DNA of 64,000 bases from Candidatus Woesebacteria bacterium GW2011_GWB1_33_38 (GCA_000990005.1 LBPF01000001.1:26315-90314); one strand, 5' to 3'; positions 1,583 to 49,080 are shown, counted from the stretch's first letter. Made by a program: numbers and translations. The notes: generated by a model not told the origin, from the letters alone.

Positions 1583-1608
1583 GTATCAATGAATTGATTC
1601 ATTGATAC
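1583..1608. promoter_or_regulatory. 26-bp palindrome GTATCAATGAAT-TG-ATTCATTGATAC (putative operator, copy 1)
   Basis: Two perfect 12-bp inverted arms are separated by a 2-nt spacer. The site lies about 20 bp upstream of the TrpR-like gene start, in the spacer after the M23 gene stop. Confidence 0.5.
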
Positions 1609-1627
1609 AAGAAGGAATGAAGGAGAT

Positions 1628-2068
1628 ATGACGCAGATATCAAAATATAGAGTATCTCAAAAAGTAAATGATCAGATTTCAGATATTTTTTTCCAAACTG
1701 TTGCAAATTTAACTCAAAAAAAGCAAGTTTTGGAGTTTTTCAGTGAATTTTTAACTCCAACTGAAAAAATAATGTTATCCAAAAGACTAGCTATTGGGTA
1801 TTTGCTAGCTAGAGGTTATGAGTACAGAGAAATTTCAAAGGTTCTAAAAGTAAGTACTGCAACTGTAGGAAACTTTGCTAGATTATATAAACACGGTACT
1901 TCATATCGAAAAATAGTTGATAAGATATTAAGTAAAATTAAAACAAAAGAAATGTTTTTGGATTTCGTTGAAGGATTTGCCGATATTGGTGCAATTGGGG
2001 GAGCAAAATCAGCAGGTTGGTTTGAATTGCGAAATGAAATCAGAAAGAAGAAACAAAATATTTTGTAG
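1628..2068 (+). CDS. TrpR-like / YerC-YecD family small helix-turn-helix DNA-binding protein
   Basis: It is a small alpha-helical protein with an HTH-like segment (STATVGNFARLYKHG), and the size and pattern resemble the Trp-repressor-like YerC family. It has an AAGGAG RBS and is flanked on both sides by the 26-bp palindrome. Confidence 0.45.
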   Translation: MTQISKYRVSQKVNDQISDIFFQTVANLTQKKQVLEFFSEFLTPTEKIMLSKRLAIGYLLARGYEYREISKVLKVSTATVGNFARLYKHGTSYRKIVDKILSKIKTKEMFLDFVEGFADIGAIGGAKSAGWFELRNEIRKKKQNIL

Positions 2069-2072
2069 TCTA

Positions 2073-2098
2073 GTATCAATGAATCAATTCATTGATAC
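2073..2098. promoter_or_regulatory. 26-bp palindrome copy 2 (GTATCAATGAAT-CA-ATTCATTGATAC), inverted relative to copy 1
   Basis: The arms are identical to copy 1 and the 2-nt spacer is the reverse complement. It overlaps the regulator stop codon and the start of the next gene. Confidence 0.5.
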
Positions 2099-2882
2099 AG
2101 TATTATTCTTAATTGTATTTATGTTATTCTTTATTTTTCCATTCACAGTAAAAGCTGCATTTTCACTAGCGATCACAAGTGCAAGTCCTACTGACATTCT
2201 AGATAAAGAGCAAATAGTTGAAGTGACTTTACAAATTGAAGATTTACCGTCTGGTGATTCATATTTTAGGGCAGGGTGGAAATCTGGATCAAGTTATGTA
2301 GGTTATGTTCAAAATAATGGTGGTAATTGGGTAGAATTGCGCGCTCTAAGTGGTGAATGTAGTGATTATTTTAAAATTAGTGAAGCAACCACATCTGCAA
2401 TTTTAAAAATTAAAATTGGAGAGGAAAACGATATTTCCACTGGTACGATACCAATCAAGGCTCATAGGTTAACATCCTCATGTAGTAGTTCTTATGGAAG
2501 TAATGAATTTAATACAAATATTTTACTTCCAACTTCGACACCAGTACCAACAACTACTTCAACACCAATCGTAACCGCAATAAGTACGGCTACTGCGACA
2601 TCAACTCCGATTAAAACTGCGACGTCTACACCCACAAAAACCGCAACAGCAAAACCAACCACAACATCTACTCCAACTGAGTCGGGGCAAGCTGAGACCC
2701 CAGAATTTGTAGTCTCAGATATTAAAACATCAACACCAGAGGGTATTGTCGCTGGTGCGTCAACTTCCAAAAAATTTCCATTTCTATCTATTTTTTTTAT
2801 AGTCGCTGGAATTATGTTTTTGGGATATGGAGGATATTTAATATATAATAATAAGCATGGTAAAACTAATGAAGTTTCTTAA
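2079..2882 (+). CDS. Cell-surface protein: hydrophobic N-terminal signal, globular domain, Thr/Pro/Ala-rich linker, C-terminal TM anchor with basic tail
   Basis: The ORF track begins at 1968 but that stretch overlaps the regulator. In-frame ATGs at 2079 and 2121 precede a signal-like hydrophobic stretch. The linker is TSTPVPTTTSTP...KTATSTPTKTATAKPTTTSTPTE and the C-terminus is FLSIFFIVAGIMFLGYGGYLIYNNKHGK. The exact start is uncertain. Confidence 0.5.
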   Translation: MNQFIDTVLFLIVFMLFFIFPFTVKAAFSLAITSASPTDILDKEQIVEVTLQIEDLPSGDSYFRAGWKSGSSYVGYVQNNGGNWVELRALSGECSDYFKISEATTSAILKIKIGEENDISTGTIPIKAHRLTSSCSSSYGSNEFNTNILLPTSTPVPTTTSTPIVTAISTATATSTPIKTATSTPTKTATAKPTTTSTPTESGQAETPEFVVSDIKTSTPEGIVAGASTSKKFPFLSIFFIVAGIMFLGYGGYLIYNNKHGKTNEVS

Positions 2883-3225
2883 ATTCTGGTTACCTCCCAT
2901 CCTTTGGGCTATTATTATCTTTAGACTTTCGTCAAATGTACTTCCTTCAGTTGGGCCAACTTATTTAAGTGATTTTGCATTTAAAAAATTTTCTCATGTT
3001 TTCTTTTACGCAGTATTGGGGATCTTGGTTTATCGTGCTTTATTATCAGAAAATATCGTTAGGACAAAGGCGCTTTACATCTCAATAATTGTTTGTTTAA
3101 TTTATGGAATAGGTGATGAAATCCATCAATCATTTATCCCTGGCCGTGGACCACATATTAGAGATGTGGTTTTTGATACAATAGGTAGTTCACTAGGAGG
3201 AATATGGGCAAAAAAATACTTGTAA
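2857..3225 (+). CDS. VanZ-like family membrane protein
   Basis: It has four TM helices and a conserved-looking DEIHQSF...R..DVxxDxxG block typical of VanZ-like proteins. Confidence 0.5.
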   Translation: MVKLMKFLKFWLPPILWAIIIFRLSSNVLPSVGPTYLSDFAFKKFSHVFFYAVLGILVYRALLSENIVRTKALYISIIVCLIYGIGDEIHQSFIPGRGPHIRDVVFDTIGSSLGGIWAKKYL

Positions 3226-4190
3226 CTGGAGGAGCGGGTTATATTGGTTCTTTCATGGTCCGTCAGCTGGCGGAGAAAAATTATGAAGTTGTCGTTTTAG
3301 ACAATTTGTCATATGGTCACATAGAAGCAGTTAAAGATTTTCGTTTAGAAAAAATTGATTTAGTGACAGACACTCAGAAGTTAGATGATCTTTTTGAAAA
3401 TGAAAAGTTTTCGGCAGTTGTCCATATGGCTTCTTTTATCCAAATGGGAGAATCTTTTGTTAACCCTGCAAAATACTATTTAAATAATGTTGTTGGTTTT
3501 TTGAATTTAATGGAGGCAATGAGAAAGGGAAATTGTAAAAAAATAGTCCTTTCCTCTTCGGCTGGAGTATATGGAAATCCTGAAAGACTTCCAATTGATG
3601 AAAACGACTCCAAAGATCCTCTAAACCCATATGGAGAAACAAAATATATAATGGAAAGAATCTTGGAAGATTATGATGGTGCATATGAAATAAAGTTTGT
3701 TTCTCTTCGTTATTTCAATGCAGCAGGGGCATCCTTGGACGGTTCAATTGGGGAAGCCCATTCTGAAGAAAGCCATTTAATTCCAAATATTATAACCAAA
3801 GCTATTAAGGGAGAAGAAATTGAAATATTTGGTAGTGATTATGATACACCTGACGGAACATGTATTAGAGATTATATTCATGTTTTGGATTTGGTTGAAG
3901 CTCACTCTTTGGCTTTGGAGTTTTTAGATAATGGAAAAAGTGAAGTTTTTAATTTAGGAATTGGCAAAGGTTATTCAAATAAAGAAATAATTGAAATGAT
4001 TAAAAAAGTGACAGGTTTAGAATTAAAGATAAAATACGGACCAAAAAGAGTGGGGGATGCTAATTCGTTATATGCATCAAATGAAAAAATAAAAAAAGTA
4101 TTAGGTTGGATTCCGAAATATAACTTAAAAGATATTGTTAAATCTTCGTTTATTTGGCATAATACTCATCCAAATGGCTATCATAACTAA
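3204..4190 (+). CDS. galE: UDP-glucose 4-epimerase
   Basis: It carries a Rossmann motif (VTGGAGYIGS), a YxxxK catalytic motif (YGETK) and the full-length GalE pattern. Confidence 0.85.
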   Translation: MGKKILVTGGAGYIGSFMVRQLAEKNYEVVVLDNLSYGHIEAVKDFRLEKIDLVTDTQKLDDLFENEKFSAVVHMASFIQMGESFVNPAKYYLNNVVGFLNLMEAMRKGNCKKIVLSSSAGVYGNPERLPIDENDSKDPLNPYGETKYIMERILEDYDGAYEIKFVSLRYFNAAGASLDGSIGEAHSEESHLIPNIITKAIKGEEIEIFGSDYDTPDGTCIRDYIHVLDLVEAHSLALEFLDNGKSEVFNLGIGKGYSNKEIIEMIKKVTGLELKIKYGPKRVGDANSLYASNEKIKKVLGWIPKYNLKDIVKSSFIWHNTHPNGYHN

Positions 4191-9900: not shown

Positions 9901-10091
9901 TTGGCTGTTGCGGTATAGATAATCCAAATGACTCAGATGATCCTAGCGATCCAGACGATCCTGATATTCCAACTGTTGTCGGAGGTAGTAACCCTGTTTC
10001 TACAACATCAAGTAGTTCTGGATCTTCCAATGGTAGTTCCTCATCAGCAGGACCTGCGATATTAGGTCTTTCTGCGACTTCATCAGAATGA
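6951..10091 (+). CDS. Large secreted repeat protein, paralog 2 (1046 aa) with Pro-rich N-terminal region, repeat domain, internal LPETLG + TM + RRR segment, second repeat domain and acidic Ser-rich C-terminus
   Basis: After the signal peptide comes a PPTPPPAPT-rich stretch, then many NTGGxSxIxTGDAN repeats and CCG motifs. At 8928-9060 the ORF encodes LPETLG, 15 aa, a 17-aa hydrophobic segment and RRRLAIKR, then a signal-peptide-like segment and a further repeat domain. Confidence 0.7.
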   Translation: MKKILILIFTIAIVLGNTVSIFAQALPPTPPPAPTAPSAPTPPPAPTMPPIPTMIPTLAPTPPPVVSTPTYSPISTPTSESFITESTVSGGQDSDAGMGSSSIDTGDATTDGTLIVDVNSNLSVVLGDSGSQSGGSAGIINSGNGESSENSGSAVIINNNNTGQTNSANIVNGLYQSAITGDNSASKNTGGDSIITTGDANVTGTIITSVNTNVAGVAVSEFNVLEDTTGDIILDFGNTCITNCGSLADAVIKNTGNGTDSINTSSLDVTNNNLTDQLNDAIIVNNMDLFADSGNNDTNKNTGGDSIITTGDANVVANLLTFANNNLAGNVVYAVVNIFGNLIGDIIFPEGSFASCCGVFDTALANINNGTGSTNTTSYSNEITDSATQINNLEIENNLIFDANSGGNETKGNTGGNSSIVTGDTNIDARLINIANNNLAGGNYWLVIVNEAGKWIGKILGTSDGASFGGSDDFEFLVDENGGVTVANAGNGTDSTNTAVYNETNNNELTQVNNAKIVNNVNLEANSGGNSASKNTNGNSSIVTGDASIIANIVNFVNNNITGGGKLFVAVVNVFGSWVGDFVGPGFEQEELATSPDSIGIGGADVNSQESDDNNGGSNSNQQTTTVFQASSPQIASIVIPTVFRNSSARVLGNKISLNLPETLGSAIDVAQKKVVNINFAWLLAILFPIGIFSMIFRRRLAIKRILASFLVLMLLVSSVRPFLSLALAEEIVILGNGSGSDNTAVVSISNTTTVTQTNTASVENVVTPSVDTGNNTVNGNTGSDVSVVTGDIDTNVVLNNSLNNSIVENSCCDANDSSVLITANGKDSQNLVTMDVNNNVINITQSADIGNKVEGSANTGNNTANNTSGNVIIDTGDIKVMGGINNSPINTYFIKSAINNGGFLASISANGTDSVNKIEANLGGSNQIDAKNYYLAYNFVDWDLNTGGNIANGNTGGNVFIKTGNFFFDFLISNAGNIGYVDVGCCGIDNPNDSDDPSDPDDPDIPTVVGGSNPVSTTSSSSGSSNGSSSSAGPAILGLSATSSE

Positions 10092-10582
10092 AAAATAGAT
10101 TAGTCATACTATTAATAGGGTTTGCTTTGGGGTTTTTTCTTACAAGGATTGAGGCACCTGCAAATGGTTATACGATCGAAAAGTCATTTTCCAACTCATT
10201 TCCAACAAGAATTATAATACCATCTGTATCAATTGATACATCAGTCAAGAAAGCACTGATTATAAATGGTTATTGGCAAGTATTTTCAGATTCTGCAGCA
10301 TGGGGAGATCAATCAGGAATTCCAGGGCGGATTGGTAATCAAGTAATTTTTGCCCACAAAAGAAGTGGTTTATTTTTACCTCTGACAGATATTCAAATAG
10401 GCGCAAAGGTTTATGTTTTAACTAATGAAAAGTCGTATGCCTACGAAGTCAAAGAAATTAAAGATGTTAAACCATTTCAAATTGAAGTTGTGGCCCCTAC
10501 AAGCGATGAGACACTGACTCTTTACACTTGTACTGGCTTTGGTGATATTGAAAGATTGATTGTTGTAGCCAAAAAAATATAA
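10088..10582 (+). CDS. Sortase-family transpeptidase
   Basis: It has an N-terminal TM anchor, a conserved His region (IFAHKRSG) and an active-site TLYTC motif (TLxTC). It overlaps the stop of the upstream repeat protein by 4 nt (ATGA). Confidence 0.7.
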   Translation: MKNRLVILLIGFALGFFLTRIEAPANGYTIEKSFSNSFPTRIIIPSVSIDTSVKKALIINGYWQVFSDSAAWGDQSGIPGRIGNQVIFAHKRSGLFLPLTDIQIGAKVYVLTNEKSYAYEVKEIKDVKPFQIEVVAPTSDETLTLYTCTGFGDIERLIVVAKKI

Positions 10583-30066: not shown

Positions 30067-30805
30067 ATTATATTTAAGCATTGTTATACCCTCTTATAAT
30101 GAAGAAAACAATATAAGAACGGGATCACTTTCTGGTATGGTTGATTATCTCAAAGAACAAGACTATTCATGGGAAATATTGGTTGTTGATGATGGATCAA
30201 CGGACAAAACTGCTGAATTAGCTCTTAAATTTGCTGAAACTCACAAAAATATTAGAGTATTAAAAGAACCACATCGAGGTAAAGGTGGTACAGTTATTGC
30301 AGGAATGCTTAAAGCAATTGGTGAAATTGTTATTTTTGATGATATGGATCAAGCAACCCCCATAGATCAGTTAGAAAAGATATTACCTAAATTTAGAGAA
30401 AAATATGATGTTGTTATCGGGTCACGTGCTGGTAGAGAGGGAGCACCATTAATTCGAAAAACTATGGCTTTGGGCCTTTCAATTTTGCGAAATATTGTTT
30501 TACAACTTCCTTATAAAGATACTCAATGTGGATTTAAAGCTTTTACTAAGCCAGCTTCTGAGAAGATTTTTAAAAAATTGCAAATATTTAACAACAATCA
30601 AGCGCAGGCAGGAGCTTCGGTATCGGCAGGATTTGATCTGGAAATATTATATGTAGCTAGAAAACTAAAATTAAAAATTACTGAGGTTCCAGTTGTTTGG
30701 CACCATAAAGAGGGAACAAAAGTAAATCCGATCAAGGATTCATGGGAGGGACTAAGAGATTTATTAAAAATTAGAATAAATGCCATAAAGGGAATTTATA
30801 GGTGA
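30059..30805 (+). CDS. GT2 family glycosyltransferase
   Basis: The GT2 signatures IVIPSYNEENNI and VVDDGSTDKT are present. Confidence 0.8.
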   Translation: MNKLYLSIVIPSYNEENNIRTGSLSGMVDYLKEQDYSWEILVVDDGSTDKTAELALKFAETHKNIRVLKEPHRGKGGTVIAGMLKAIGEIVIFDDMDQATPIDQLEKILPKFREKYDVVIGSRAGREGAPLIRKTMALGLSILRNIVLQLPYKDTQCGFKAFTKPASEKIFKKLQIFNNNQAQAGASVSAGFDLEILYVARKLKLKITEVPVVWHHKEGTKVNPIKDSWEGLRDLLKIRINAIKGIYR

Positions 30806-32175
30806 AAAAATATTTAAAATATTTTCTAGTTATATCATTATTAGTTTTTGGCTTGTTCTTGCGAATTTATAAACTTCAGGAAAGAACTTTATTTGACGCG
30901 GATCAAGAATGGCTGGCAACTCGTGCAGATAAAATTGTAAAAGGAGACTTTGCACTTTTGGGTCAAGTCACGTCAGTTGGTAATTTTTCTATAGGTCCAG
31001 GGTATATCTATCTTGTAAGTTTTACTTCATTACTGATGGATAATAATCCAATTTCAGGTGCAGTTTTAAGTGTTATTTTAGGTGTTATAACCTTATTTTT
31101 AATTTATTTATTTGCTGACAGATTTATTGACAATAAAACTTCAATTATTTTACTTCTTTTAACAGTAACCTCGTTTAACTTAATTACGTGGGACCAAACG
31201 CCTTGGGCGCCTTCCCTTTTTTTTATTGCTCAGATAATACTTCTAACAGGTGCATACCTTTCTCAAAAAAATCAAATAGGTTATTTAGTTATGTCGCTTG
31301 GTTTTATTTTAGGTTTTCAATCACATTTTGGGATAGTCTTAAGTCTATTTTCTATTTTAACTTATTTTATATTTGCAAATCCTGTTCGACCAAAGATGTT
31401 AACAATCGTTTACACAAGCCTAATTGTGATAATTGGATTGTCCTCAAATATAGTTTTTGACGTAGCGCATAACTTTAGTAACTTTAATAAACTTGCCGGG
31501 ATTTTTAAAGGCGACAGCCTAGATTATTTTCTAGGATTTGGGAAAATTATTAATATTTTGTCCAATAATATTGTTCCAACTTTATATCCCAGGAATGTTA
31601 ATATTCTTGACAATATAATTGTCAAAGGTATATTTGCTCTGATATTGGTCAATTGCATTAGTTTTTTAAGAGATAAAAATAAAAATAAACTTTCACTTCT
31701 TCTTTTAATTACTACTGCCTTTCCATCACTCTTTTTCTTTATTCAACAGGGAAAATTTTCAGAATATTATTTACTGATGACTGTACCATCTTTATTGTTT
31801 ATGTTAGCCTTTTTCTTAAAAACATTATCGAAACAAAAGGCTATATTTATATTTGTTTTAATAGTAGCTACTTATTTAAATTTGAAAGCTTGGTATGGTT
31901 ATAAAAAGAGTTGGAGCTTAAAATCAAAAACAGATATCGCTGAGTTTATTGTTGATAAGGTAGGTTATGAAAATTATGGAATTTCTCTAAGTACTAAACT
32001 TGGGGATGGTTTTGGATTTAAATATATTTTCGATTATTATGGAATTAAAGCCGATGTTCCTCCCAAAAAAGGAGAAACCAAAATATTTTCAATTATTATT
32101 CCAGATGGATTTGATGGAATGAAAGGATTAAAAACATTTGACGGCATCGGCCTCATCTGGCAAGGTTTTGACTAA
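30802..32175 (+). CDS. GT-C-fold membrane glycosyltransferase (ArnT-like), paralog family A
   Basis: The first-loop motif (RIYKLQERTLFDADQEW...GQVTSVGNFSIGPGYIY) is present and the protein is polytopic. Confidence 0.6.
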   Translation: MKKYLKYFLVISLLVFGLFLRIYKLQERTLFDADQEWLATRADKIVKGDFALLGQVTSVGNFSIGPGYIYLVSFTSLLMDNNPISGAVLSVILGVITLFLIYLFADRFIDNKTSIILLLLTVTSFNLITWDQTPWAPSLFFIAQIILLTGAYLSQKNQIGYLVMSLGFILGFQSHFGIVLSLFSILTYFIFANPVRPKMLTIVYTSLIVIIGLSSNIVFDVAHNFSNFNKLAGIFKGDSLDYFLGFGKIINILSNNIVPTLYPRNVNILDNIIVKGIFALILVNCISFLRDKNKNKLSLLLLITTAFPSLFFFIQQGKFSEYYLLMTVPSLLFMLAFFLKTLSKQKAIFIFVLIVATYLNLKAWYGYKKSWSLKSKTDIAEFIVDKVGYENYGISLSTKLGDGFGFKYIFDYYGIKADVPPKKGETKIFSIIIPDGFDGMKGLKTFDGIGLIWQGFD

Positions 32176-32232
32176 AGTGTTATATTTAACAAAGTGAAAA
32201 ATGCAATTTTGATAAATCTAATTAATGTTGGT

Positions 32233-32258
32233 GTATCACTGTACTAGTACAGTGATAC
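32233..32258. promoter_or_regulatory. Perfect 26-bp palindrome GTATCACTGTAC-TA-GTACAGTGATAC (type-B site with a TrpR-operator-like GTACTAGTAC core)
   Basis: It shares the outer GTATCA/TGATAC half-sites with the 26-bp palindrome family. It lies 25 bp upstream of another family member, ahead of the SGNH hydrolase gene. Confidence 0.5.
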
Positions 32259-32283
32259 AATTAATTTAAGAGCGTGGTTTCTG

Positions 32284-32308
32284 GATCAATGAATTGATTC
32301 ATTGATAC
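32284..32308. promoter_or_regulatory. Palindrome copy 3 (GATCAATGAAT-TG-ATTCATTGATAC; one base missing in the left arm)
   Basis: It sits immediately upstream (3 nt) of the SGNH hydrolase ORF. Confidence 0.5.
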
Positions 32309-32311
32309 AAG

Positions 32312-33055
32312 GTGAATAATTTAATAACAAAAAATGAAATGATTTTACTTGAAGATATAAAACAAAAATTAAATAACAATGGAAAATATTGGATTGCTTT
32401 TGTTGGAGACTCCATAACATCCTGTGAATGGGTACATCCAAACTGGAGAGAAATAGTCGAGTATGTATTACAAGAAGAAATGACCAAATTCATGGGAGAT
32501 TGGCAAAAATCTGAGTGGGGAATAAGGGGATTTAACCTTGCACTTGATGGTTCAACGACAAAAGACATATTGGACAGGGTTGATACTATTAAATTGATTA
32601 GTCCAGACCTAGTAATAGGTTTAATGGGTGGAAATGATCCTGTGTTGGGCATTGATGTACAAAGTAGCGTTGAAAATGTAATTAAGATTGTAAATAAATT
32701 AAACACACAGGTTGTATGGTGTAACTCAACCCCTGCGGGAGACGGTTCTAAAAAAAATAAAGAGTATGAACCTTATGCAAAAGCTTTTATGGATGTTCCT
32801 GGTCTACCTAACCTCCAAAAAATTGATATGTTTAGCATATACCAAAAGTTTTCGACAGAGAAGTTTTTCACTTTCATTTCTGAGGAAAATTCAGTTGAAG
32901 GTATTAAAGCAGGTGAGGTTGACCTACAACATCCAAATCAACTGGGAAATGCCTATATTGCCAAAGTTATTTTGAAAGAAGTTTTTAATATTGATTTTGA
33001 CCCTGAGTTGTATATTAAAACAACATTATCTGGTGAAAAGTTTCCAAAATACTAA
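32312..33055 (+). CDS. SGNH/GDSL-family hydrolase (putative esterase/acyl- or acetyl-transferase acting on glycans)
   Basis: A GDSIT block and downstream Gly and GGND-like blocks (MGGNDP) are present, along with D..H near the C-terminus (DLQHPN). Confidence 0.6.
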   Translation: MNNLITKNEMILLEDIKQKLNNNGKYWIAFVGDSITSCEWVHPNWREIVEYVLQEEMTKFMGDWQKSEWGIRGFNLALDGSTTKDILDRVDTIKLISPDLVIGLMGGNDPVLGIDVQSSVENVIKIVNKLNTQVVWCNSTPAGDGSKKNKEYEPYAKAFMDVPGLPNLQKIDMFSIYQKFSTEKFFTFISEENSVEGIKAGEVDLQHPNQLGNAYIAKVILKEVFNIDFDPELYIKTTLSGEKFPKY

Positions 33056-34843: not shown

Positions 34844-36376
34844 ATGTATAAAACAAAAAAAATTATAAATGAATGGAAGTGGGCGGGGTTGGGACTATTT
34901 ATAATACTCATAATTGGTTTTGGAATTAGGATTACAAACTTAACAATACTACCTATCTTTGTAGATGAGGCAATATATGTCAGATGGGCACAGGTAATGG
35001 CTAATGAACCAACACTACGGTTTTTGCCTTTATCTGATGGTAAACAGCCTCTTTTTATGTGGATTTTAATGTTTTTAATTAACAGGTTCTCGGACCCTTT
35101 ATTTATAGGCCGTCTGATTTCAGTTTGTACTGGCATGGGTACTTTGCTTGGAGTTTTTACTTTAAGTTATTTACTTTTTAAATCCAAAAAGGTTTCCTTA
35201 TTAGCCTCTTTCCTCTATGCACTTTCACCTTTTGCTGTTTTCTTTGACAGAATGGCGCTTGTCGATTCAATGCTTTCAATGTTTGGTATCTGGACTGCGA
35301 TTTTTGGATTACTAACAGCCAAATACAAAAGGCTTGATCTTGCCATGGTAACTGGATTTTTGTTAGGATTTGCAGTACTTACAAAGTCCCCTGCAATTTT
35401 TATTGCACTTTTATTACCTTCTTTTTGGTTTTTGACAAATTGGAAAGGAATATGGCGATTGGGAGCAACTTATTTAATTGCGTTTGGAATTTACAATATC
35501 CAAAGACTTGGTCCAAATTTTGGGATGTTAACTTCAAGGACAGGAGATTATGTTTTGCCTTTAAGCCATATTTGGACAAACTTTTTTGACCCTTTAATTC
35601 CATACTTAAAAGATTTTGCAGTTTGGATTGTTACAATGGGACCTTTTATTTTAATTCCGTTATTTTTAATTGGAATTTATGTGGGTTTTAAAAAATACTT
35701 TAAAGAGACACTTGTCCTTTTTGCCTGGTTTTTATTCCCACTTTTTGTTCAAGCGGAGTTAGCTCGAGTTTTTACTGCAAGATATATATTTTTTATCTTG
35801 CCATATTTATTTATTTTATCTGGAATGGTTTTCTTATCAAAAGCTAAGTGGTTGCTGGTTACAAGTTATGGGTTAATAGGCCTTTTTGTTATTCAAAGTT
35901 CCATTTTCAATTTTTATTTACTGACAAATCCTGAAAAAGCAAACCTACCAAGGGGGGAAAGGTCTGGCTATTTGGAGGAGTGGACAGCTGGGCAAGGAAT
36001 AGCGGAAATTGCCAATTTCCTGAAAATTCAAAACCTCCAAAATCCAAAAACTCAAATTGTGGTGGGGACAGAAGGATACTTTGGGACACTGCCTGATGGA
36101 CTTCAAATATATGTTAATGATATTCCAAACATTGTAGTCATAGGAGTTGGGGTTATTGTTGATGGTACGCCCAAGAGTTTACGAGAAGCAGTTGATGCAG
36201 GCAATAAAACTTATTTAGTGGTTAATAAATCAAGATTTCATGCTAGTGCTGAGGAACAAGGTTTTAAGTTAATTAATAAGTTTACTAAAGGTTTAAGACT
36301 ACCAGATTCAGATCAATACACTAAGTTTGGTCCTCAAGAAGAACTTTTGTTTTTTGAGGTGCTACAATCTAAATAA
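34844..36376 (+). CDS. GT-C-fold membrane glycosyltransferase (GT39/ArnT/PMT-like)
   Basis: The first-loop acidic motif (ILPIFVDEAIYVRWA) is present. It has about 11 TM helices and a soluble C-terminal domain. Confidence 0.6.
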   Translation: MYKTKKIINEWKWAGLGLFIILIIGFGIRITNLTILPIFVDEAIYVRWAQVMANEPTLRFLPLSDGKQPLFMWILMFLINRFSDPLFIGRLISVCTGMGTLLGVFTLSYLLFKSKKVSLLASFLYALSPFAVFFDRMALVDSMLSMFGIWTAIFGLLTAKYKRLDLAMVTGFLLGFAVLTKSPAIFIALLLPSFWFLTNWKGIWRLGATYLIAFGIYNIQRLGPNFGMLTSRTGDYVLPLSHIWTNFFDPLIPYLKDFAVWIVTMGPFILIPLFLIGIYVGFKKYFKETLVLFAWFLFPLFVQAELARVFTARYIFFILPYLFILSGMVFLSKAKWLLVTSYGLIGLFVIQSSIFNFYLLTNPEKANLPRGERSGYLEEWTAGQGIAEIANFLKIQNLQNPKTQIVVGTEGYFGTLPDGLQIYVNDIPNIVVIGVGVIVDGTPKSLREAVDAGNKTYLVVNKSRFHASAEEQGFKLINKFTKGLRLPDSDQYTKFGPQEELLFFEVLQSK

Positions 36377-37842
36377 TGGAAGACAAGGATTTATCAATTT
36401 CTGACGTAAAAGCAAGGTCGGTTAGAGGCGTTGTTGTCTTAACAGGTAGAACCGTAATTTTACAAGTTGTAACTTTAGTAGCTCAGCTTTTACTTTTTGC
36501 CTATTTGGGAGTTTCTGAATTTGGTGTTTTTGCAATTGTTTCGGCAGTTGTTAACTTTTTGACTTATTTTTCTGACATCGGTTTGGCGGCAGCCTTAATT
36601 CAAAAGAAAGAAACTCCATCTGATACTGATTTAAAAACTACATTTACTGTTCAACAGTGTCTTATTTTGTTTTTAGTTTTAATTTTATTTATTGTTTCCC
36701 CACTAATCACTAATCACTATTCACTGTCCACTGGTGGCCAGTGGTTAATGTATGCACTAGGATTTTCATTGATAATATCTTCTTTGAAAAGTATTCCCTC
36801 TGTTCTACTTGAAAGAAAACTTGAATTTGTTAAGTTGGTTTTCCCTCAAATTCTAGAAACTTTTGTTTATAACATTGTTTTAGTTGTTTTTGCCATGAAA
36901 GGCTTTGGGATAACCAGTTTTACTGTAGCAGTTATTATTAGAAGTTTGGTGGGACTTACCGTAATTTACTGGATACAACCTTGGAAACCGGGATTTTCAT
37001 TTTCTTTATCAACTTTAAAAGATTTATTTAAATTTGGTGTACCTTATCAAATAAATACACTCCTAGCTACATTTAAAGACGATGGAATGACATTAATTTT
37101 GGGTGGAATCATAGGTCCAGCTGGTATTGGGATACTTTCTTTTGCTCAAAAAGTTGCAAGGCTTCCCCTGACCTTTTTTATGGACACAGTAACGAAAGTT
37201 ACTTTCCCTGCATTTTCTAGACTACAAACTGAAAAAGACCATTTAGAAAGAAGCGTTACAAGATCAATATTCTTTATATGTTTACTCGTTTTTCCCAGCT
37301 TAGTTGGGATTGTCATATTGATGCCTTGGGTTGTAGAACTTGTTCCTAAATACAATAAATGGGTGGTTGCACTTACACCGTTATTGTTCATATCAATTAA
37401 TTACGCTTTTGCTTCAGCAACAACCCAATTAACAAATCTTTTAAATGCTATTGGTAAAATTAAAATCACATTTTACTTGATGATTATGTGGACAACTTTG
37501 ACTTGGGTTTTAATCCCTTTCTTGGCCATTAAGTTTGGTGTAAATGGCGCTGCCGTAGGTTACAGTTTAGTTGGACTTTCTTCAGTCGTCGCAGTCTATA
37601 TTGCTAAAAAGTATGTTAATTTTTCAATTAGTGATTCAATGATTAAACCTCTTATGGCCTCAATTATTATGTTTGTTACTTTAGTATTTGTTAGAAAGTT
37701 TTTAGATGTAAGTTTTTACTCCTTGGGAATTTTAGTTTTAGTGGGAGTAATTTCCTATTCTGCCTCAATTATTTCCATGGTCGGTTCAAGTTTGTTAGAA
37801 GATGTTAAAAAAAGCCTTAAAACCATTTTTAATCGCAATTAG
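36376..37842 (+). CDS. wzx: Wzx-like oligosaccharide flippase (MOP superfamily polysaccharide biosynthesis protein)
   Basis: It has 12-14 TM helices, an N-terminal pattern typical of the polysaccharide-biosynthesis (PST) family, and a start overlapping the upstream stop (TAATG). It contains a heptamer repeat at 36702-36729. Confidence 0.7.
   Translation: MEDKDLSISDVKARSVRGVVVLTGRTVILQVVTLVAQLLLFAYLGVSEFGVFAIVSAVVNFLTYFSDIGLAAALIQKKETPSDTDLKTTFTVQQCLILFLVLILFIVSPLITNHYSLSTGGQWLMYALGFSLIISSLKSIPSVLLERKLEFVKLVFPQILETFVYNIVLVVFAMKGFGITSFTVAVIIRSLVGLTVIYWIQPWKPGFSFSLSTLKDLFKFGVPYQINTLLATFKDDGMTLILGGIIGPAGIGILSFAQKVARLPLTFFMDTVTKVTFPAFSRLQTEKDHLERSVTRSIFFICLLVFPSLVGIVILMPWVVELVPKYNKWVVALTPLLFISINYAFASATTQLTNLLNAIGKIKITFYLMIMWTTLTWVLIPFLAIKFGVNGAAVGYSLVGLSSVVAVYIAKKYVNFSISDSMIKPLMASIIMFVTLVFVRKFLDVSFYSLGILVLVGVISYSASIISMVGSSLLEDVKKSLKTIFNRN
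36702..36729 (+). repeat. Degenerate heptanucleotide tandem repeat ACTAATC ACTAATC ACTATTC ACTGTCC
   Basis: It lies in-frame inside wzx and encodes PLITNHYSLST. Confidence 0.75.
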
Positions 37843-39424
37843 TTTAGTAATTTTAATTGCAATTAGATTTATTTATCTAAACGAATTTCCGGTTGGAGTT
37901 TTAAATGATGAAGTTGACGTAACACTTTCCTCAAAAAGTTATTTTGATAATGGTACAGACCTTTCTGGAGTACCTTTCCCTAAATCGCTTTTTGTAACCA
38001 ATACCTGGGCAGGTTTGAGTGGGTTACCTTCATATCTACTATCTCCAATTTATGGACCATTTGAATTATTGCCGATTGTTATTAGAGCCCCATTTGTAAT
38101 TGTAAGTATTTTTATCGGGTTATTTATAAGTTTAATAATTTTTGAATTAACTAAAAATAAAAAGTTTAGTCTAATTTCATTTTTTGTTTCACTTATTAAC
38201 CCTTGGCTATATTTTTATAGTCGCCAGCCTACAGAGGCGCCATTCGCATTACTTTTTGCTTTAATTGGTATTTATTTGTTCTTTAAGTTAAAGTTTCAAA
38301 AAATTATATACCCATTTATATTTTTTATACTTTCATTCTATTCATATTTTGGAGCCAAGCCAGTAATCCCTGTTCTTTTATTATCTTTATCTTTATTTAA
38401 TAAAAAGTTAGTCATAATATCTATTTCGTTTGTCTTACTATTAACTAGTTCATATTTCTATATTTCAAAGAGCCTAAATGGTAGTACTTTATCTCAAAGA
38501 TCTAATCAAATTACATTTTTGAATTTGGAAAAATATGCTGAAGTCGTTAATCAAAACAGAAGGGTTTCTGTCGATTTTCTCCTAAAGGAAGTTTTTTATA
38601 ATAAATTTACAGTTTTTGCTAAAATAACCACCTCAAAATTTGTAAACCAGTTTTCTCCTGAGTTTTTGTTTTTATCTGGAGATGGTGTAGTTCCTTTTGC
38701 TGATCATGGTGTTTTATATCTTCTGGATGGTTTAATGATAATTATTGCTCTATATTACTTTAGCAACTCAAAGGATAAAGGTGAAAAAAATTTATTAGTT
38801 TTATGTCTAATCCTTTTTATTTCAGGTAGTGTTGCTTCAACAATTAGTACAGTAGGTAACCAGTTTGTTTTTAGATCGTTTTTGCATATACCTCTCTATA
38901 TAATTTTAATATCCTACGGAATATATAAATTCAATTTCAAAGTGGTTGTTGTAGGGTTGTACATTCTTTTGTTTATAAACTTTTTGATTTTCTTTTTGTT
39001 CCGTTATTCGATTGATCAACAAGATAATCATTTCATAACTGAGAGGATTGTTGCTAGTTATTTAAATAGAACTAAACTTGAAACTATTGTTGTCACATCA
39101 GAATCAGAAAGAATTTATTATCAAACAGTTTTTTATAACAAACATGCTCAACGAAAATTATTTACTAATATTTGTCCGAAAATTGAAATTGGAAAAACCT
39201 ACCTTATTGATTCAAAATTAGATTGCACGATAGATGGGGATTTTGTAGTTATTCAAAGCCAAAAAGATTCGGGTGTTAAGTATAGAATTTATGATGATAA
39301 ACTCTGTAATTTTGATGATTTAACTCCATATCGTAGGGTTCACTTTATTTCCGACTATGATGTTGAAAGATTGGATGATAAAATCTTTTGCAACCGTTGG
39401 ATACAAAATGGCAAAACTAACTAA
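37802..39424 (+). CDS. Polytopic membrane protein, putative GT-C-fold glycosyltransferase
   Basis: It has more than 12 TM helices and an acidic first loop (LNDEVDV). No precise family is recognised. Confidence 0.5.
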   Translation: MLKKALKPFLIAISLVILIAIRFIYLNEFPVGVLNDEVDVTLSSKSYFDNGTDLSGVPFPKSLFVTNTWAGLSGLPSYLLSPIYGPFELLPIVIRAPFVIVSIFIGLFISLIIFELTKNKKFSLISFFVSLINPWLYFYSRQPTEAPFALLFALIGIYLFFKLKFQKIIYPFIFFILSFYSYFGAKPVIPVLLLSLSLFNKKLVIISISFVLLLTSSYFYISKSLNGSTLSQRSNQITFLNLEKYAEVVNQNRRVSVDFLLKEVFYNKFTVFAKITTSKFVNQFSPEFLFLSGDGVVPFADHGVLYLLDGLMIIIALYYFSNSKDKGEKNLLVLCLILFISGSVASTISTVGNQFVFRSFLHIPLYIILISYGIYKFNFKVVVVGLYILLFINFLIFFLFRYSIDQQDNHFITERIVASYLNRTKLETIVVTSESERIYYQTVFYNKHAQRKLFTNICPKIEIGKTYLIDSKLDCTIDGDFVVIQSQKDSGVKYRIYDDKLCNFDDLTPYRRVHFISDYDVERLDDKIFCNRWIQNGKTN

Positions 39425-40274
39425 ACATACCTGTCTTATTTGTGGTAGTAAAAAACATAAAGAATATTGGGCAATGCATGGTTATAAACTAGCAAAATGC
39501 TCTAACTGTTCCTTTGTTTGGGATTTTTTTCATTCTGAAAATGTTTTAGCTCAATATGATAAGAGTTACTTTCAAAACCAAAACCCTAAAGGAGGGTATG
39601 CAAATTACTATGAAGGTATGAGAGTTAATAAGAAAACATTTACAGATAGGCTTAATAAAATACAAAAAAGAATTTCTGGTAAGGGTAAATTTTTGGATGT
39701 TGGTTGTGCACTAGGAGATTGCTTAATGGCCGCAAAAGAAGAAGGTTGGAAAGATGTAAGTGGAGTTGAAGTTTCAAAATTTGCTTACGAGTTTGCCATA
39801 AAAAGAGGCTTAAATGTTAAAAATACTACACTTGATAAGGCGGGGTTTAAACCTAATTCGTTTGAGGCAATAGCCTATCAAGATGTTATTGAACATGTTG
39901 AAGATCCTCTTTATGAACTTGAAACAGCTCACAAACTGCTTAAAAACAAAGGTTATATTTTTCTCGTTACTCCTGATGTAGGTGGTCTATGGCACAAACT
40001 TCTTAATGGCCTTTGGTATCATTATAAACCAGGTGAGCATATTATGTATTTTTCACAGGCATCACTTAGGTTGGCACTTGAAAAAACTGGATACAAAAAC
40101 ATTGAAACTAGAAGAACGTATCATGTTTTAAGTATTGAATATGTTTTAAATCGACTTAAATATTATTCACCCTTCATTTTTGACAATCTGGCAAAGATTG
40201 TGCATGGGTTTCATTTTAAAGATTTTGCATTTAAAGCCTATACTGGAGAAATTGAAGCATGGGGTCAAAAATAG
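39408..40274 (+). CDS. Class I SAM-dependent methyltransferase with N-terminal CxxC...CxxC zinc ribbon
   Basis: The zinc-ribbon pattern is CLICGS...CSNCSF. The SAM-binding motif LDVGCALGDC and an acidic loop are present. I prefer the ATG at 39408 over the track start at 39357. Confidence 0.7.
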   Translation: MAKLTKHTCLICGSKKHKEYWAMHGYKLAKCSNCSFVWDFFHSENVLAQYDKSYFQNQNPKGGYANYYEGMRVNKKTFTDRLNKIQKRISGKGKFLDVGCALGDCLMAAKEEGWKDVSGVEVSKFAYEFAIKRGLNVKNTTLDKAGFKPNSFEAIAYQDVIEHVEDPLYELETAHKLLKNKGYIFLVTPDVGGLWHKLLNGLWYHYKPGEHIMYFSQASLRLALEKTGYKNIETRRTYHVLSIEYVLNRLKYYSPFIFDNLAKIVHGFHFKDFAFKAYTGEIEAWGQK

Positions 40275-41914
40275 TTAAATATTTTATAGTTCTACTTGGT
40301 ACTTTGATTTGGTCTGTCACCATGTTTAGAAGTGGGTTGGAAGGTTCTAATGGCATTGGCTTCTGGGGTGCAAATGGACACGATGGGGTGTGGCATGTTG
40401 CCTTAATTGAATCTCTTGCAAGAAGAGGTTTTAATAATCCTGTTTTTTCCGGTTCTGTTTTACAGAATTATCATCTTGGCTTTGATATATTATTAGCGAT
40501 AACACATCGTTTAACAGGGATCAGTATTGGTTCCCTGTATTTTCAATTACTTCCCATTGTTTTTTCATTTCTAATTGGAATATTGACTTATAAATTTGTT
40601 TTTAACTGGAGAAGGTCACTTAGTGAAAGTTTTTGGGCTGTATTTTTTGTTTATTTTGGTAGTAGCTTCGGTTTTGTAATTACATTTTTAAGAGACAAGG
40701 TTGTTACAGGTGAATCAATGTTTTGGGCTTCACAATCAATTTCAACATTAATTAATCCGCCTTTTGCATTATCTTTAATTATTATTTTATTAGGTTTAAT
40801 TGCACTACAAAATAAAAAATTATTACTAAGTATATTGTGTTTTGGAATTCTAATTCAAATTAAAGCCTATGCTGCAATTTTAGTTCTTGGTGGATTATTT
40901 ATTGCTAGTATTTTTGAACTGTTCACTGCTCATCGTTCACTGCTCACCAAAGTCTTTCTCGGTTCTTTACTATTAAATTTAATATTATTTTTTCTATTTA
41001 AAAATGATGGCACATCTGTATTTGTTTGGCAACCCTTTTGGTTTTTGGAAACTATGATGTCTTATTCAGACAGATTGGGTTGGGATAGGTTTTATTCTGC
41101 TATGACTACTTACAAAATGGGACACATCTGGATAAAAGGTATCTTAGCCTATGGAACTGCTTTTGTAATATTTATCATAGGCAATATGGGATTAAGAGTT
41201 GTTGGGTTTTACTTCTTTTTAAAACATAAAAAACTTGACACTCTTTTAGTATTTATTCTGACAGTGGTTTTAATGGCTATTGTAATTCCAATGTTTTTTG
41301 TTCAAAAGGGTACGCCTTGGAATACTATTCAATTCTTCTATTACTATCTATTCTTCTTTTCTGTTTTTGCAGGAATTGCAATAAGTTGGTCGAAAGTTAT
41401 ATTTAAACTGATAATTATTGTTTTTGCTATTTTTGGTAGTTGGGCTACGCTTCAACACTATTTGCCACCAAGGCCACAATCCAAAATATCAACAGATGAG
41501 TTATATGCATTGAAATTTTTAGCAAATCAAGATCGGGGGATAGTTTTTACTTACCCCTTTGATTCTAATAAAGCGAAAACGGCAGAAAATAATCCACCAA
41601 GACCTCTGTATTTTTACGATTCAACAGCGTATGTATCCGCCTACTCTAAAAAGGACGTTTTTCTCGAGGATGAAATTAATTTAAATATCATGGATTATGA
41701 TTGGAAAACAAGAAGAGAAGAATCCTTGAATTTCATCTCAAATTTAGATCCTCAAAAAGGGAGCATGTTCTTAAAAGATAATAACATTAAATATTTATAT
41801 CTTGTCAAAGATAACTCTCCGCTTAGTGGAGAATATCTAAAATTGGGTACAGGCGATTTAAACTTAGAAAAGATTTTTGAGAACAGGGAGGTTATACTAT
41901 ATAAGTATGAATAA
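40259..41914 (+). CDS. Polytopic membrane protein, paralog family B (GHDGxWH motif), putative GT-C-like
   Basis: It has about 13 TM helices and a soluble C-terminal domain. It is clearly homologous to the minus-strand gene at 58334-60160 in both the N-terminal motif and the C-terminal domain. It contains a 14-mer x2 repeat. Confidence 0.55.
   Translation: MGSKIVKYFIVLLGTLIWSVTMFRSGLEGSNGIGFWGANGHDGVWHVALIESLARRGFNNPVFSGSVLQNYHLGFDILLAITHRLTGISIGSLYFQLLPIVFSFLIGILTYKFVFNWRRSLSESFWAVFFVYFGSSFGFVITFLRDKVVTGESMFWASQSISTLINPPFALSLIIILLGLIALQNKKLLLSILCFGILIQIKAYAAILVLGGLFIASIFELFTAHRSLLTKVFLGSLLLNLILFFLFKNDGTSVFVWQPFWFLETMMSYSDRLGWDRFYSAMTTYKMGHIWIKGILAYGTAFVIFIIGNMGLRVVGFYFFLKHKKLDTLLVFILTVVLMAIVIPMFFVQKGTPWNTIQFFYYYLFFFSVFAGIAISWSKVIFKLIIIVFAIFGSWATLQHYLPPRPQSKISTDELYALKFLANQDRGIVFTYPFDSNKAKTAENNPPRPLYFYDSTAYVSAYSKKDVFLEDEINLNIMDYDWKTRREESLNFISNLDPQKGSMFLKDNNIKYLYLVKDNSPLSGEYLKLGTGDLNLEKIFENREVILYKYE
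40921..40948 (+). repeat. Tandem 14-mer GTTCACTGCTCATC / GTTCACTGCTCACC
   Basis: It lies in-frame and encodes FTAHRSLLT. Confidence 0.7.
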
Positions 41915-45400: not shown

Positions 45401-46333
45401 ATGAAAAGTTTTAAAGTATCTGTAGTAATGCCAAATATTAATGGGAAAACCATTATGGAAAAGAATTTGCCAAAGCTTTTTGAAGCTGTCAATAATCCTA
45501 AAAATAATATTATTGAAGTTATCATAGTAGATGATGGAAGTTGGGATGATAGTGTGAAGTTTCTGTCTACTGAATATAAAGATAAGGTAAAATTAATTAA
45601 ACATACTAAAAACAGAGGTTTTTCGGCAGCTGTTAATACTGGGGTTAGGGCAACAAGTGGTGATTTAATCCTTCTAATTAATACTGATGTTATTCCAGAA
45701 AAGAATTTTTTAGAAAGTGTAGTGCCTCATTTTGAAGATCCAAAAGTTTTTGCCGTTTCAACACATGAGACTGGGTATGGGGGAGCTAAGGGTTTTTGGG
45801 CAGATGGCTACATCCAACTTGGAATGAACGAAGAAACTAAGAGCGTTCATCAAAGTTTTTATGTAAGCGGAGGAAGTGGAGTTTTTAGAAAAAGTATTTG
45901 GCAGGAGTTGGGGGGAATGGATGAAAAACTACTTTCTCCTTTTTATTGGGAAGATATTGATCTTTGTTACAGAGCAACAAAAAGAGGTTATATTAATTTA
46001 TGGGAACCAAATGGAAAAGTTGTTCATCAACATGAGTCAACAATTTCAAAATTTCCTAAAAAATATGTTGCTCGTGTTAAAGAAAGGAATCAACTTCTAA
46101 TGCTTTGGAAAAATATACATAGTAAAAATTTAATTAAAAAACATATCCCTGCAATTATTTTAAGAGCTCTAAGACACCCTGGTTATTTTTTGATTATCTT
46201 TATGGCCTTGGGTAGACTTAACATTGCTTTAAAAGCTAGAAAAAAAGAAATAAAAGAATGTAAGGTTTCAGATGAGGCAATATTTGCAAACTATAAATTC
46301 ACCCCCACACCAAAACAGTCTATAAAAAAATGA
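45401..46333 (+). CDS. GT2 family glycosyltransferase
   Basis: The motifs VVMPNING and VDDGSWDDS are present, and the protein is about 310 aa. Confidence 0.75.
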   Translation: MKSFKVSVVMPNINGKTIMEKNLPKLFEAVNNPKNNIIEVIIVDDGSWDDSVKFLSTEYKDKVKLIKHTKNRGFSAAVNTGVRATSGDLILLINTDVIPEKNFLESVVPHFEDPKVFAVSTHETGYGGAKGFWADGYIQLGMNEETKSVHQSFYVSGGSGVFRKSIWQELGGMDEKLLSPFYWEDIDLCYRATKRGYINLWEPNGKVVHQHESTISKFPKKYVARVKERNQLLMLWKNIHSKNLIKKHIPAIILRALRHPGYFLIIFMALGRLNIALKARKKEIKECKVSDEAIFANYKFTPTPKQSIKK

Positions 46334-47193
46334 AAATTACGGAAAATGTTGATTTTAATTTTGGTGTGGGGGTGAAACTCTCCATAATTATTGTTAATCT
46401 AAATACGGTCGACTTGACTGAAGGCTGTATCAAATCAATTTATAAACATAAATTAAATTCCCCATTTGAAGTCATTGTTACTGATAATGGCAGTAATGAT
46501 GGTTCGGTTGAGATGCTTAAAAAATATGATAAAGATTATAAAAACTTTACTGCAATATTTAATAACAACAATACTGGTTATGCTAAAGCTAATAATCAAG
46601 GAATCAGAAAGAGTAAGGGTAATTATATATTACTTTTAAATAATGATACTGTTGTCTACAAAAATTCATTAAATAGTTTAGTCGAATTTGCAGAAAAAAA
46701 TCCTGACGCAGGTGTTGTGGGTAGCAAACTTTTAAACATTGACGGAACCCCTCAAATGTCATGTTTTAATTTTCCTACAATTACAAATGCCATTAAAGAA
46801 TACTTTTTGGGTCAAAAAGGTTTGTTTGATAAATTCGCACCAAAGGATACTAAACCTACAACCGTAGATTCTGTAGTTGGAGCTGTATTTTTAATTACAC
46901 CAGAAGCAAGAAAAAAAGTGGGAATATTAGACGAGAGATATTTTGCCTATTTTGAAGATATTGATTATTGCAGGCAAACATGGAATAAAGGCTTAAAGGT
47001 TTATTATCTTCCCGAATCAGTCATAACTCATTATCATGGTGCAACATTTAAAAAACTTGCAGATGAAGGGGAGAGGTGGAAAAAGTTAATACCATCAAGT
47101 AAAACTTATCATGGACTTGTCAAGCATTATATAATTAATGCTATAATCTGGTCCGGCCAAAAATGGCAAAAAATATTGGGACTTTTTAAATAA
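46330..47193 (+). CDS. GT2 family glycosyltransferase
   Basis: The motifs LSIIIVNLN and VTDNGSNDGS are present. It overlaps the upstream gene by 4 nt. Confidence 0.75.
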   Translation: MKITENVDFNFGVGVKLSIIIVNLNTVDLTEGCIKSIYKHKLNSPFEVIVTDNGSNDGSVEMLKKYDKDYKNFTAIFNNNNTGYAKANNQGIRKSKGNYILLLNNDTVVYKNSLNSLVEFAEKNPDAGVVGSKLLNIDGTPQMSCFNFPTITNAIKEYFLGQKGLFDKFAPKDTKPTTVDSVVGAVFLITPEARKKVGILDERYFAYFEDIDYCRQTWNKGLKVYYLPESVITHYHGATFKKLADEGERWKKLIPSSKTYHGLVKHYIINAIIWSGQKWQKILGLFK

Positions 47194-48988: not shown

Positions 48989-49002
48989 ATTAAGTGTTTT
49001 TT

Positions 49003-49028: not shown

Positions 49029-49080
49029 AGAGTACAGAGTGAAAAATATCAAGATATAAATGTGGTAGAATTGGAACATT

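Follow-up and report, generated by a model that had tools for sequence, protein, structure and literature searches.

We report on a family of palindromes in a 64,000-nucleotide stretch of DNA from Candidatus Woesebacteria bacterium GW2011_GWB1_33_38 (GCA_000990005.1, LBPF01000001.1:26315-90314), referred to below as the window. Two of these palindromes bracket a gene for a 146-amino-acid (aa) regulator of the TrpR family, and comparison with related genomes makes it very likely that the palindromes are operators bound by this regulator. The association of the sites with the gene, their conservation, their covariation with the protein and the fold of the protein are established here. A preliminary description of the window had read the set as operators with autoregulation, and this reading is strengthened by sites that flank the regulator gene family-wide, by the matching of the two sites within a locus, by covariation at residue 78 of the protein and by promoter overlap in related loci.

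Palindromes and the regulator gene that they bracket

When at most one mismatch is allowed, GTATCA-N14-TGATAC has five matches in the window, which has a G+C content of 32%: 1583-1608, 2073-2098, 32233-32258, 32283-32308 and 49003-49028. The mean expected by chance is 0.16, and none of 100 dinucleotide-preserving shuffles reached five; the repeated palindrome family first noticed in the sequence is therefore real, and its sequences are as described then. Type A reads GTATCAATGAAT-TG-ATTCATTGATAC, with the centre flipped to CA in the 2073 copy, and type B, found at 32233, reads GTATCACTGTACTAGTACAGTGATAC. The palindromes are longer than 26 bp, extending to 28-30 bp (TTGTATC...GATACAA, 1581-1610). 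The copy at 49003 had been called identical to that at 1583 together with its flanks; the identity holds over 31 nt (ttttGTATC...GATACa), but the flanks further out differ. The copy first placed at 32284-32308 exists, but it spans 32283-32308 and begins with GGATCA, its one mismatch. Similarly, a half-degenerate type-B copy assigned to 63837-63856 is present but is better placed at 63830-63855 (GTACTGCTGTACTAGTACAATGATAC), where it has 22 of 26 bases in common with the 32233 copy. The type-B and type-A palindromes at 32232 and 32283 form a tandem pair, 50 bp from centre to centre, with type B first. The regulator gene and the candidate sites, the latter given without strand, are as follows.

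1581-1610, no strand: putative upstream operator, type A, TTGTATCAATGAAT-TG-ATTCATTGATACAA, from the motif scan, with equivalents at homologous regulators
1628-2068, plus strand: gene for the 146-aa TrpR-family regulator, recognized by PF01371, PDB sequence matches, and an AlphaFold2 model with Foldseek
2073-2098, no strand: putative downstream operator, type A with a CA centre, starting 4 nt past the regulator stop and containing ATG 2079
32232-32259, no strand: type-B palindrome TGTATCACTGTACTAGTACAGTGATACA, with outer arms GTATCA as in type A and a CTAG centre
32283-32308, no strand: putative type-A operator with one mismatch, 24 nt before ATG 32333 of a GDSL-family hydrolase gene (32333-33055)
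49002-49029, no strand: putative type-A operator equal to the 1583 copy, 52 nt before ATG 49081 of a PNPOx-like gene (frameshifted)
63830-63855, no strand: degenerate type-B site (22 of 26), the weakest of the set, preceding ATG 63862 of a PMT_2-like gene

None of the five strong sites falls inside a gene body, and the non-coding share of the window is at most 8.9%, an upper bound because the greedy caller based on open reading frames (ORFs) dropped real genes, the regulator included. The exact motif was also found in 11 metagenome contigs and lay within a gene body in none of them; scatter through coding DNA, named beforehand as the refuting outcome, was thus seen neither for the strong sites of the window nor in these contigs. 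The early statement that all sites are intergenic and upstream of starts was too broad in two respects: the 2073 copy overlaps ATG 2079, and the 63830 copy lies mostly within the last codons of an S51-peptidase ORF and spans its TGA stop, the next ATG following 6 nt on. As had been claimed, hmmsearch found a single Trp_repressor-family ORF in the window (1628-2068); it is bracketed by the first two copies, and no second TrpR-like gene that could own the type-B sites was detected in the window by the same search. The first palindrome ends about 19 nt before the regulator ATG, with a GAAGGAG ribosome-binding site between them. Separately, a short palindrome at 10226-10239 (GTATCAATTGATAC), inside ORF 10088-10582, corresponds to the two outer half-sites fused directly, with the inner 12 bp missing, and probably arose by chance.

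The regulator matches PF01371 (Trp_repressor) over residues 19-91 with 48.8 bits (cut-off 27, E 7.6e-13), which places it in that family, and PF01371 is present in all but one of 79 database homologs. A profile built from 41 homologs matches the YerC/HisR-type structures 3frw, 3kor and 3g1c. In the AlphaFold2 model, the predicted local distance difference test score (pLDDT) exceeds 90 over residues 11-100, and the top Foldseek matches in the PDB are 3kor, 3frw, 3g1c and Escherichia coli TrpR (probability 1.00, TM-score 0.70-0.79 normalised to target); the modelled fold is TrpR-like, all-helical with a helix-turn-helix (HTH). The TrpR-like core covers about residues 11-105, and residues 106-146 (~45 aa) form a lineage-specific C-terminal extension, in which a helix is followed by a Gly-rich loop (GGAKSxGW) and then a basic helix, that is conserved throughout the 41 aligned homologs. 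The regulator scores 38.4 bits against the NCBIfam YerC/YecD equivalog (TIGR02531; cut-off 42.2) and 22.9 bits against the TrpR equivalog (TIGR01321; cut-off 67.25). The label YerC-like given to it at first thus agrees with its best structural matches, but the protein falls just under the YerC/YecD equivalog cut-off. Homologs occur in Woese-, Levy-, Roizman-, Shapiro-, Curtiss-, Davies- and Gottesmanbacteria, all of them Microgenomates of the candidate phyla radiation (CPR).

A scan of one genome per species yielded 324 relatives, from which 80 loci with at most 10 kb of flank on each side were kept (numbered here with the prefix L). Almost every locus has a palindrome of 22-38 bp just before the regulator start codon and another just past the stop, and these palindromes are lineage-specific (for example, TGCTTTAATGATTTAAATCATTAAAGCA, ACTTCGATGATTCGAATCATCGAAGT and ACTACAATACTATATAGTATTGTAGT). 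The conservation of sites and regulator in orthologous genomes, a point that the preliminary description had left to be checked, is clear: a strong dyad (at least 10 of 12) was present within 100 nt upstream of the regulator start in 60 of 79 loci and just downstream of the stop in 55 of 77, compared with 3.5% of 1600 control windows drawn from the same loci. The two sites of one locus have a median of 21 of 24 bases in common, against 13 of 24 for sites of different loci, and in genomes with two or three paralogs each copy has a different operator-like palindrome. The register is also characteristic: in most cases 1-20 nt separate the upstream site from the ATG, and the downstream site begins between -9 and +10 nt from the stop. 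In L084 and L085, which encode a 93%-identical regulator, the palindromes are retained and the flanks have diverged; likewise, the tandem pair of types B and A is retained in L086 and L091 with a diverged spacer.

Neighbour clustering combined with Pfam resolved four synteny groups: FtsE-FtsX-peptidoglycan hydrolase-regulator-secreted protein-VanZ/GalE (group A, which includes the window locus), regulator-RecA-RecX-RNase Y (group B), RecJ/CCA-adding enzyme-regulator...SecF (group C) and MetRS-regulator-TatD (group D). We observed in passing that metagenome-assembled genomes titled 'uncultured Gammaproteobacteria' or 'Pseudomonadales' (L001-L003, L005, L007-L010, L015 and others) carry FtsEX-hydrolase-TrpR-like-LTD loci of the Microgenomates type, and the taxonomic labels of those assemblies appear to be wrong.

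These synteny groups bear on the possibility that the palindromes are mobile repeats similar to repetitive extragenic palindromes (REP) or miniature inverted-repeat transposable elements (MITE), or that palindrome, gene and palindrome together form a mobile cassette, with the proximity to genes reflecting tolerated insertions. A mobile origin would account for several near-identical copies in one genome, for a regulator gene lying between inverted, self-complementary repeats, for several regulator gene copies per genome and for the 21-nt direct repeat that flanks the tandem operator pair of L086; in addition, the regulator has weak similarities to HTH_23, HTH_38 and transposase HTHs. However, the regulator resides in four deeply conserved synteny groups with housekeeping contexts, which indicates vertical inheritance rather than transposition, and no catalytic domain is present in it. 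Moreover, the register of the sites to start and stop codons is fixed, only 15 extra copies occur in the 80 loci, and the sequence of the sites follows the recognition helix of the protein. The dispersed, position-variable copies that define MITE/REP-type repeats are thus not what is seen here, and we regard a mobile origin as highly improbable.

Anatomy of the probable operators and the recognition helix

Most sites (128 of 147, 87%) are symmetric through their centre, with no loop, and what is kept across lineages is the core sequence and not only the pairing (A8-T9-G10...C19-A20-T21 of the 28-mer). When the 28-mers are tested for direct repeats by autocorrelation, the maximum lies at a shift of 8 bp (0.50 vs 0.20-0.40). 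In keeping with this period, the window site can be written as ATCAAT-GA-ATTGAT-TC-ATTGAT, three hexamers at 8-bp intervals, and for the family as a whole the consensus is AATGAT-TYRA-ATCATT, flanked by outer arms that vary. As the middle hexamer cannot be palindromic, the flip between TG and CA at the centre is explained. Centres in relatives are TTAA, TTGA or TCAA, and the upstream centre of L084 and L085 is oriented opposite to that of the window, so orientation seems to be neutral there. Levybacteria-type operators can be read as two TTTA-N6-TAAA units that overlap with an 8-bp offset. By analogy with tandem TrpR dimers (PDB 1TRR), which are offset by 8 bp, the most likely arrangement is two dimers per operator, bound in tandem and sharing the central box in the way that E. 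coli TrpR binds its longer operators. Type B differs by two symmetric substitutions from the L084 downstream operator (GTATCA-ATGTAT-TA-ATACAT-TGATAC), and one protein may bind both types.

The covariation of the operator centre with residue 78 is the best evidence that the sites are read by this protein family. An hhalign alignment with E. coli TrpR places A78-T79 of the window protein on Ala80-Thr81, at the start of the recognition helix, and T79 is invariant among the aligned homologs. At position 78, A, T or P occurs with TTAA, G with TCGA, ACGA or ACGT, S mostly with CG, and E or N with CTAG. When G, S, Q and D were set against the other residues, the ratio of CG to TA centres was 23:2 vs 1:34. 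Among 22 positions tested, the operator centre shares most mutual information with position 78 (0.75 bit; next best, 0.39). In 12 of 15 non-overlapping closest pairs with unlike centres, residue 78 differs as predicted, and the switching pairs include some inside synteny groups at 50-71% identity. Residue 78 would thus set part of the operator specificity from the start of the recognition helix. Conservation in orthologs at the regulator's own promoter and covariation with a DNA-contacting position, both of which were found, point to an autoregulated repressor with a cognate dyad operator.

Promoter geometry, the downstream site and alternative explanations

In many related loci, a recognisable promoter of the sigma-70 type, made up of a TTGACA hexamer, a 17- or 18-bp spacer and a -10 element, lies just upstream. 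The operator covers the -10/start region in L017, L020, L022, L023, L036, L049 and L072; it falls past the transcription start but ahead of the ATG in L011, L027, L028, L030, L034 and L043. A mechanical scan gave a similar picture: among 23 loci with a -35 hexamer of at least 5/6, the operator lies over -12 to +5 in 13, just downstream in 7 and upstream in 3. This placement at related promoters suits repression, and it is through these loci, by analogy, that we infer repression as the direction of regulation in the window. At the window's own sites, a promoter consensus scan showed no excess of matches over shuffles (26 vs 22).

The downstream site has features of its own, for which the following genes are relevant.

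2079-2882, plus strand: gene for a secreted or anchored protein with a signal-peptide-like N-terminus (MNQFIDTV...), a Thr/Pro-rich linker and a C-terminal transmembrane segment
2857-3225, downstream of 2079-2882: VanZ gene
3204-4190, following the VanZ gene: GalE-like epimerase gene

The probable start codon of the first gene, ATG 2079, lies inside the downstream operator and opens the ORF MNQFIDTVLFLIVF..., so that the operator (2079-2098) supplies the start and the first five codons (MNQFI/MNRFI), MNQFI... being encoded by ATGAATCAATTCAT. A start inside the operator is also present in L088 (2065-2090; MNQFINTK..., followed by lamin-tail-like QVLINEF), in L001 (10454; MNRFIKVF..., Pfam LTD) and in L003. 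The match between the 2079-2882 protein and the LTD protein of other group-A loci is limited to this operator-encoded N-terminus, and a Pfam search of the 2079-2882 protein gave no match. In the frame through the operator, a TG centre creates a stop (ATG AAT TGA) and a CA centre leaves the frame open, which may explain the orientation of the downstream site. Presence of the site beside a convergent next gene (see below) indicates that it belongs to the regulator unit and is not merely the operator of the next gene. The site could serve as a second operator in cooperative autorepression, as a roadblock or insulator formed by bound protein, or as the promoter-operator of a leaderless downstream messenger RNA.

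Several observations weigh against the operator reading or against parts of it. Each site folds stably as RNA, at -13 to -19 kcal/mol with z-scores of -3.1 to -5.6, but this folding carries no weight because any perfect palindrome folds well. The Fisher p-value of the covariation (3e-13) overstates independence, as the sequences are related. Many operators agree with the three-box tandem-dimer model, but others do not, some having ATCA, ACCA or AAAA as outer boxes. Hand inspection revealed no convincing -35 and -10 boxes by sites 1 and 4 of the window, and site 4 is centred ~50 bp before a possible start, where it could serve activation just as well. The downstream site is present beside a convergent next gene too, in at least 13 loci, for which simple promoter occlusion is insufficient. 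The distance between the two operators (466-574 bp) shows no helical phasing in a Rayleigh test with periods of 9-12.5 bp on 44 distances, and DNA looping is thus unsupported. Finally, the type-B sites might belong to an unseen paralog.

The folding of the sites raises the question of whether they act mainly as RNA hairpins, that is, as transcript-end, processing or stability elements that insulate the regulator mRNA at its two ends, or as bidirectional terminators between convergent genes, with protein binding playing a minor part or none. Consistent with such a role, a consensus scan marks 2073-2098 as terminator-like, and the downstream site keeps its place at the stop codon beside convergent neighbours as well. 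The T fraction past the downstream sites, however, matches the background value (0.29), and only 7 of 70 sites are followed by 6 or more T in 10. Intrinsic (Rho-independent) terminators were rejected on this account, as the stems are A+T-rich and the T-tract is absent. A hairpin also does not need the symmetry through the 4 central bases that 87% of the sites display, nor would it call for the primary sequence AATGAT...ATCATT and its 8-bp periodicity to be kept across lineages or for the central bases to covary with a residue of the HTH recognition helix. Identical sites stand right before start codons, where a 13-bp hairpin would block translation, and an Rfam scan of the whole window matched no family. 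We therefore consider hairpins as the main function quite unlikely. The terminator and MITE roles, named as alternatives in the preliminary description, which doubted the former, both fail direct tests, the terminator role for the T-tract and the MITE role for synteny and register.

A different question is whether the sites are true operators of another factor, or whether those of type B (32233 and 63830) serve the paralog mentioned above, so that the window would not hold a single regulon. Several paralogs with distinct operators do occur in Microgenomates genomes, CTAG-centred operators elsewhere pair with E or N at position 78 where the window protein has A, and our view is limited to 64 kb of the genome. 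Nevertheless, bracketing and covariation tie type A to the TrpR-like family. Type B has the outer GTATCA arms of type A and, as noted, is close to the L084 downstream operator, and the two types form a conserved tandem pair. Either case is thus very unlikely in our judgement.

If the palindromes are operators of the regulator, its dimer, like those of TrpR and HisR, would read a 26-30-bp dyad of three short boxes 8 bp apart. Binding at the operator in the promoter or 5' end of its own gene would repress that gene, and the second, matching operator at the stop codon would control or insulate downstream DNA. Further copies could bring the GDSL hydrolase gene, the PNPOx-like and glycosyltransferase genes and possibly the PMT_2 gene under the same control, and Microgenomates genomes would contain several regulators of this kind that differ in operator sequence. 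Binding, stoichiometry and a repressing rather than activating effect are proposed here, and we are less sure of the tandem dimers, of repression and of what the downstream site does than of the operator assignment itself. A broader reading, which as a whole we offer tentatively and think possible but rather doubtful, is that Microgenomates harbour a radiating set of mutually orthogonal TrpR-like operator-gene-operator modules. In these, tandem dimers would bind a three-box 28-bp operator with the aid of the C-terminal extension, and the residue at the helix tip would reprogram the central base pairs (A/T/P for TA, G/S for CG and E/N for CTAG). The downstream operator would then supply the start codon and first codons of a probably leaderless downstream gene or, as a protein roadblock, would insulate the module within a highly compact genome.

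Related regulators and the genes beside the sites

The closest known system is HisR/YerC, with TrpR next. HisR (YerC of Bacillus subtilis and its orthologs) is a TrpR-family histidine repressor of less than 100 aa whose operators are 20-bp palindromes with the consensus core TTTA-N6-TAAA, located upstream of his biosynthesis or transport genes; for both HisR and TrpR, the palindromes are lineage-specific and autoregulation is frequent (PMC9413887). The window regulator resembles HisR in belonging to PF01371, in having 3kor, 3frw and 3g1c as its best PDB matches by sequence and fold, and in its lineage-specific palindromic operators, those of the Levybacteria type containing the HisR core. Unlike HisR, the Microgenomates proteins have 144-153 aa with the conserved C-terminal extension (GGAKS.GW and a basic helix), and their operators span 26-30 bp. 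They also have a second operator at the stop codon and several paralogs per genome, and the neighbours of the sites are cell-surface, hydrolase and DNA-repair genes, with no his genes beside the sites in the window or in the related loci. With E. coli TrpR, the regulator shares the fold (TM-score 0.70-0.76 normalised to target), the placement of A78-T79 on Ala80-Thr81, dyad operators, a probable autoregulation and an 8-bp periodicity that recalls the tandem dimers (PDB 1TRR), and the type-B site carries the trp operator core GTACTAGTAC. In contrast, the regulator scores far below the TrpR equivalog cut-off and has Arg84 replaced (N82 here), the type-A sequence is unrelated to CTAG, and no trp or aro genes stand at the sites. 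Repressors such as LacI, with O1 and O2, and GalR, with OE and OI, use auxiliary operators or looping. Like them, the present system has a pair of matching operators, the first at the promoter and the other several hundred base pairs downstream; unlike in them, the second lies exactly at the repressor's own stop codon, at the unphased distances given above. The C-terminal extension, the long operators with 8-bp periodicity, the self-bracketing, the paralogs and the absence of amino-acid biosynthesis targets in view therefore set the family apart from HisR and TrpR.

To our knowledge, CPR bacteria are almost entirely uncultured, and we know of next to nothing on gene regulation in them. The regulator family is found in hundreds of Microgenomates genomes, often in several copies, and adjoins core functions (cell division through the FtsEX-hydrolase genes, recA-recX, RecJ/CCA and MetRS). 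It offers a first testable regulator-operator code for uncultured organisms and a concrete and cheap prediction, comprising a 146-aa protein, a 28-bp site and a specificity swap by one residue. If the operator reading is correct, regulons could be read straight from metagenome-assembled genomes, the TrpR/HisR family would reach past amino-acid control, and natural orthogonal repressor-operator pairs would be available. Within the library searched, a literature search for TrpR or YerC in CPR bacteria or Patescibacteria found nothing relevant, the HisR study (PMC9413887) being the only relevant paper.

The window genes beside the sites are the regulator, the secreted or anchored protein with the VanZ and GalE-like epimerase genes, the GDSL hydrolase, the PNPOx-like gene, with a series of membrane glycosyltransferase-like genes behind it, and, weakly, the PMT_2 gene at 63862. 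In metagenome relatives with the exact motif, the neighbours are a HAD hydrolase, a serine-hydrolase-like protein (MKNAILIHG...) and, as read from its sequence, an M20-type peptidase. In other lineages, extra sites stand at miaA, a release-factor gene, UDG and an Exo_endo_phos nuclease, and group-B sites precede recA. The label 'envelope genes' used for the targets at first has loose support, as the glycosyltransferase genes come only further downstream, and is too narrow for these others. The 80 loci (at most 20 kb each) contain only the 15 extra sites beyond the flanking pairs, 12 of them intergenic, with some intergenic distances unreliable owing to genes dropped by the caller; their small number suggests that the regulons are small and differ by paralog.

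Some of these genes have peculiarities of their own. The PNPOx-like gene (49081-49562) has a frameshift in a run of seven G (49153-49159); adding one G gives ...SGGGRPWISPV..., and the repaired protein matches PF01243 (4.5e-10). An assembly error, a pseudogene or a phase-variable gene could be responsible. At the tandem pair, a small ORF of 17 codons (32193-32246; (GTG)KNAILINLINVGVSLY*) terminates at the TAG that lies centrally in the type-B palindrome. In L086 (671-745 and 819-839) there is an equivalent small ORF (MKNAILINLIYLDVSLY*), the first 21 nt of which exactly repeat the start of the hydrolase gene downstream of both operators, and the window retains the stretch (22 nt) although the L086-type hydrolase gene is absent; the small ORF could be a leader peptide or a rearrangement scar. 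The 457-aa PMT_2 gene of the window (30802-32175) is apparently reduced to a short remnant in L086 (300-392), and the gene after the tandem operators is serine-hydrolase-like in L086 versus a GDSL hydrolase in the window. These differences indicate turnover of gene content around conserved operators. At least 10 paralogous large membrane proteins of the PMT_2/GT-C (ArnT/PMT-like) type are encoded in the 64 kb, an unusually dense set (30802-32175, 34844-41914, 49588-54462, 60103-63196 and 63862-64000). Elsewhere in the window, a perfect 18-nt G+C-rich inverted repeat (46298-46315, TTCACCCCCACACCAAAA; 46359-46376, TTTTGGTGTGGGGGTGAA) encloses a 43-nt loop that holds ATG 46330 of ORF 46330-47193, and it might be a different kind of control element, acting on translation or transcription.

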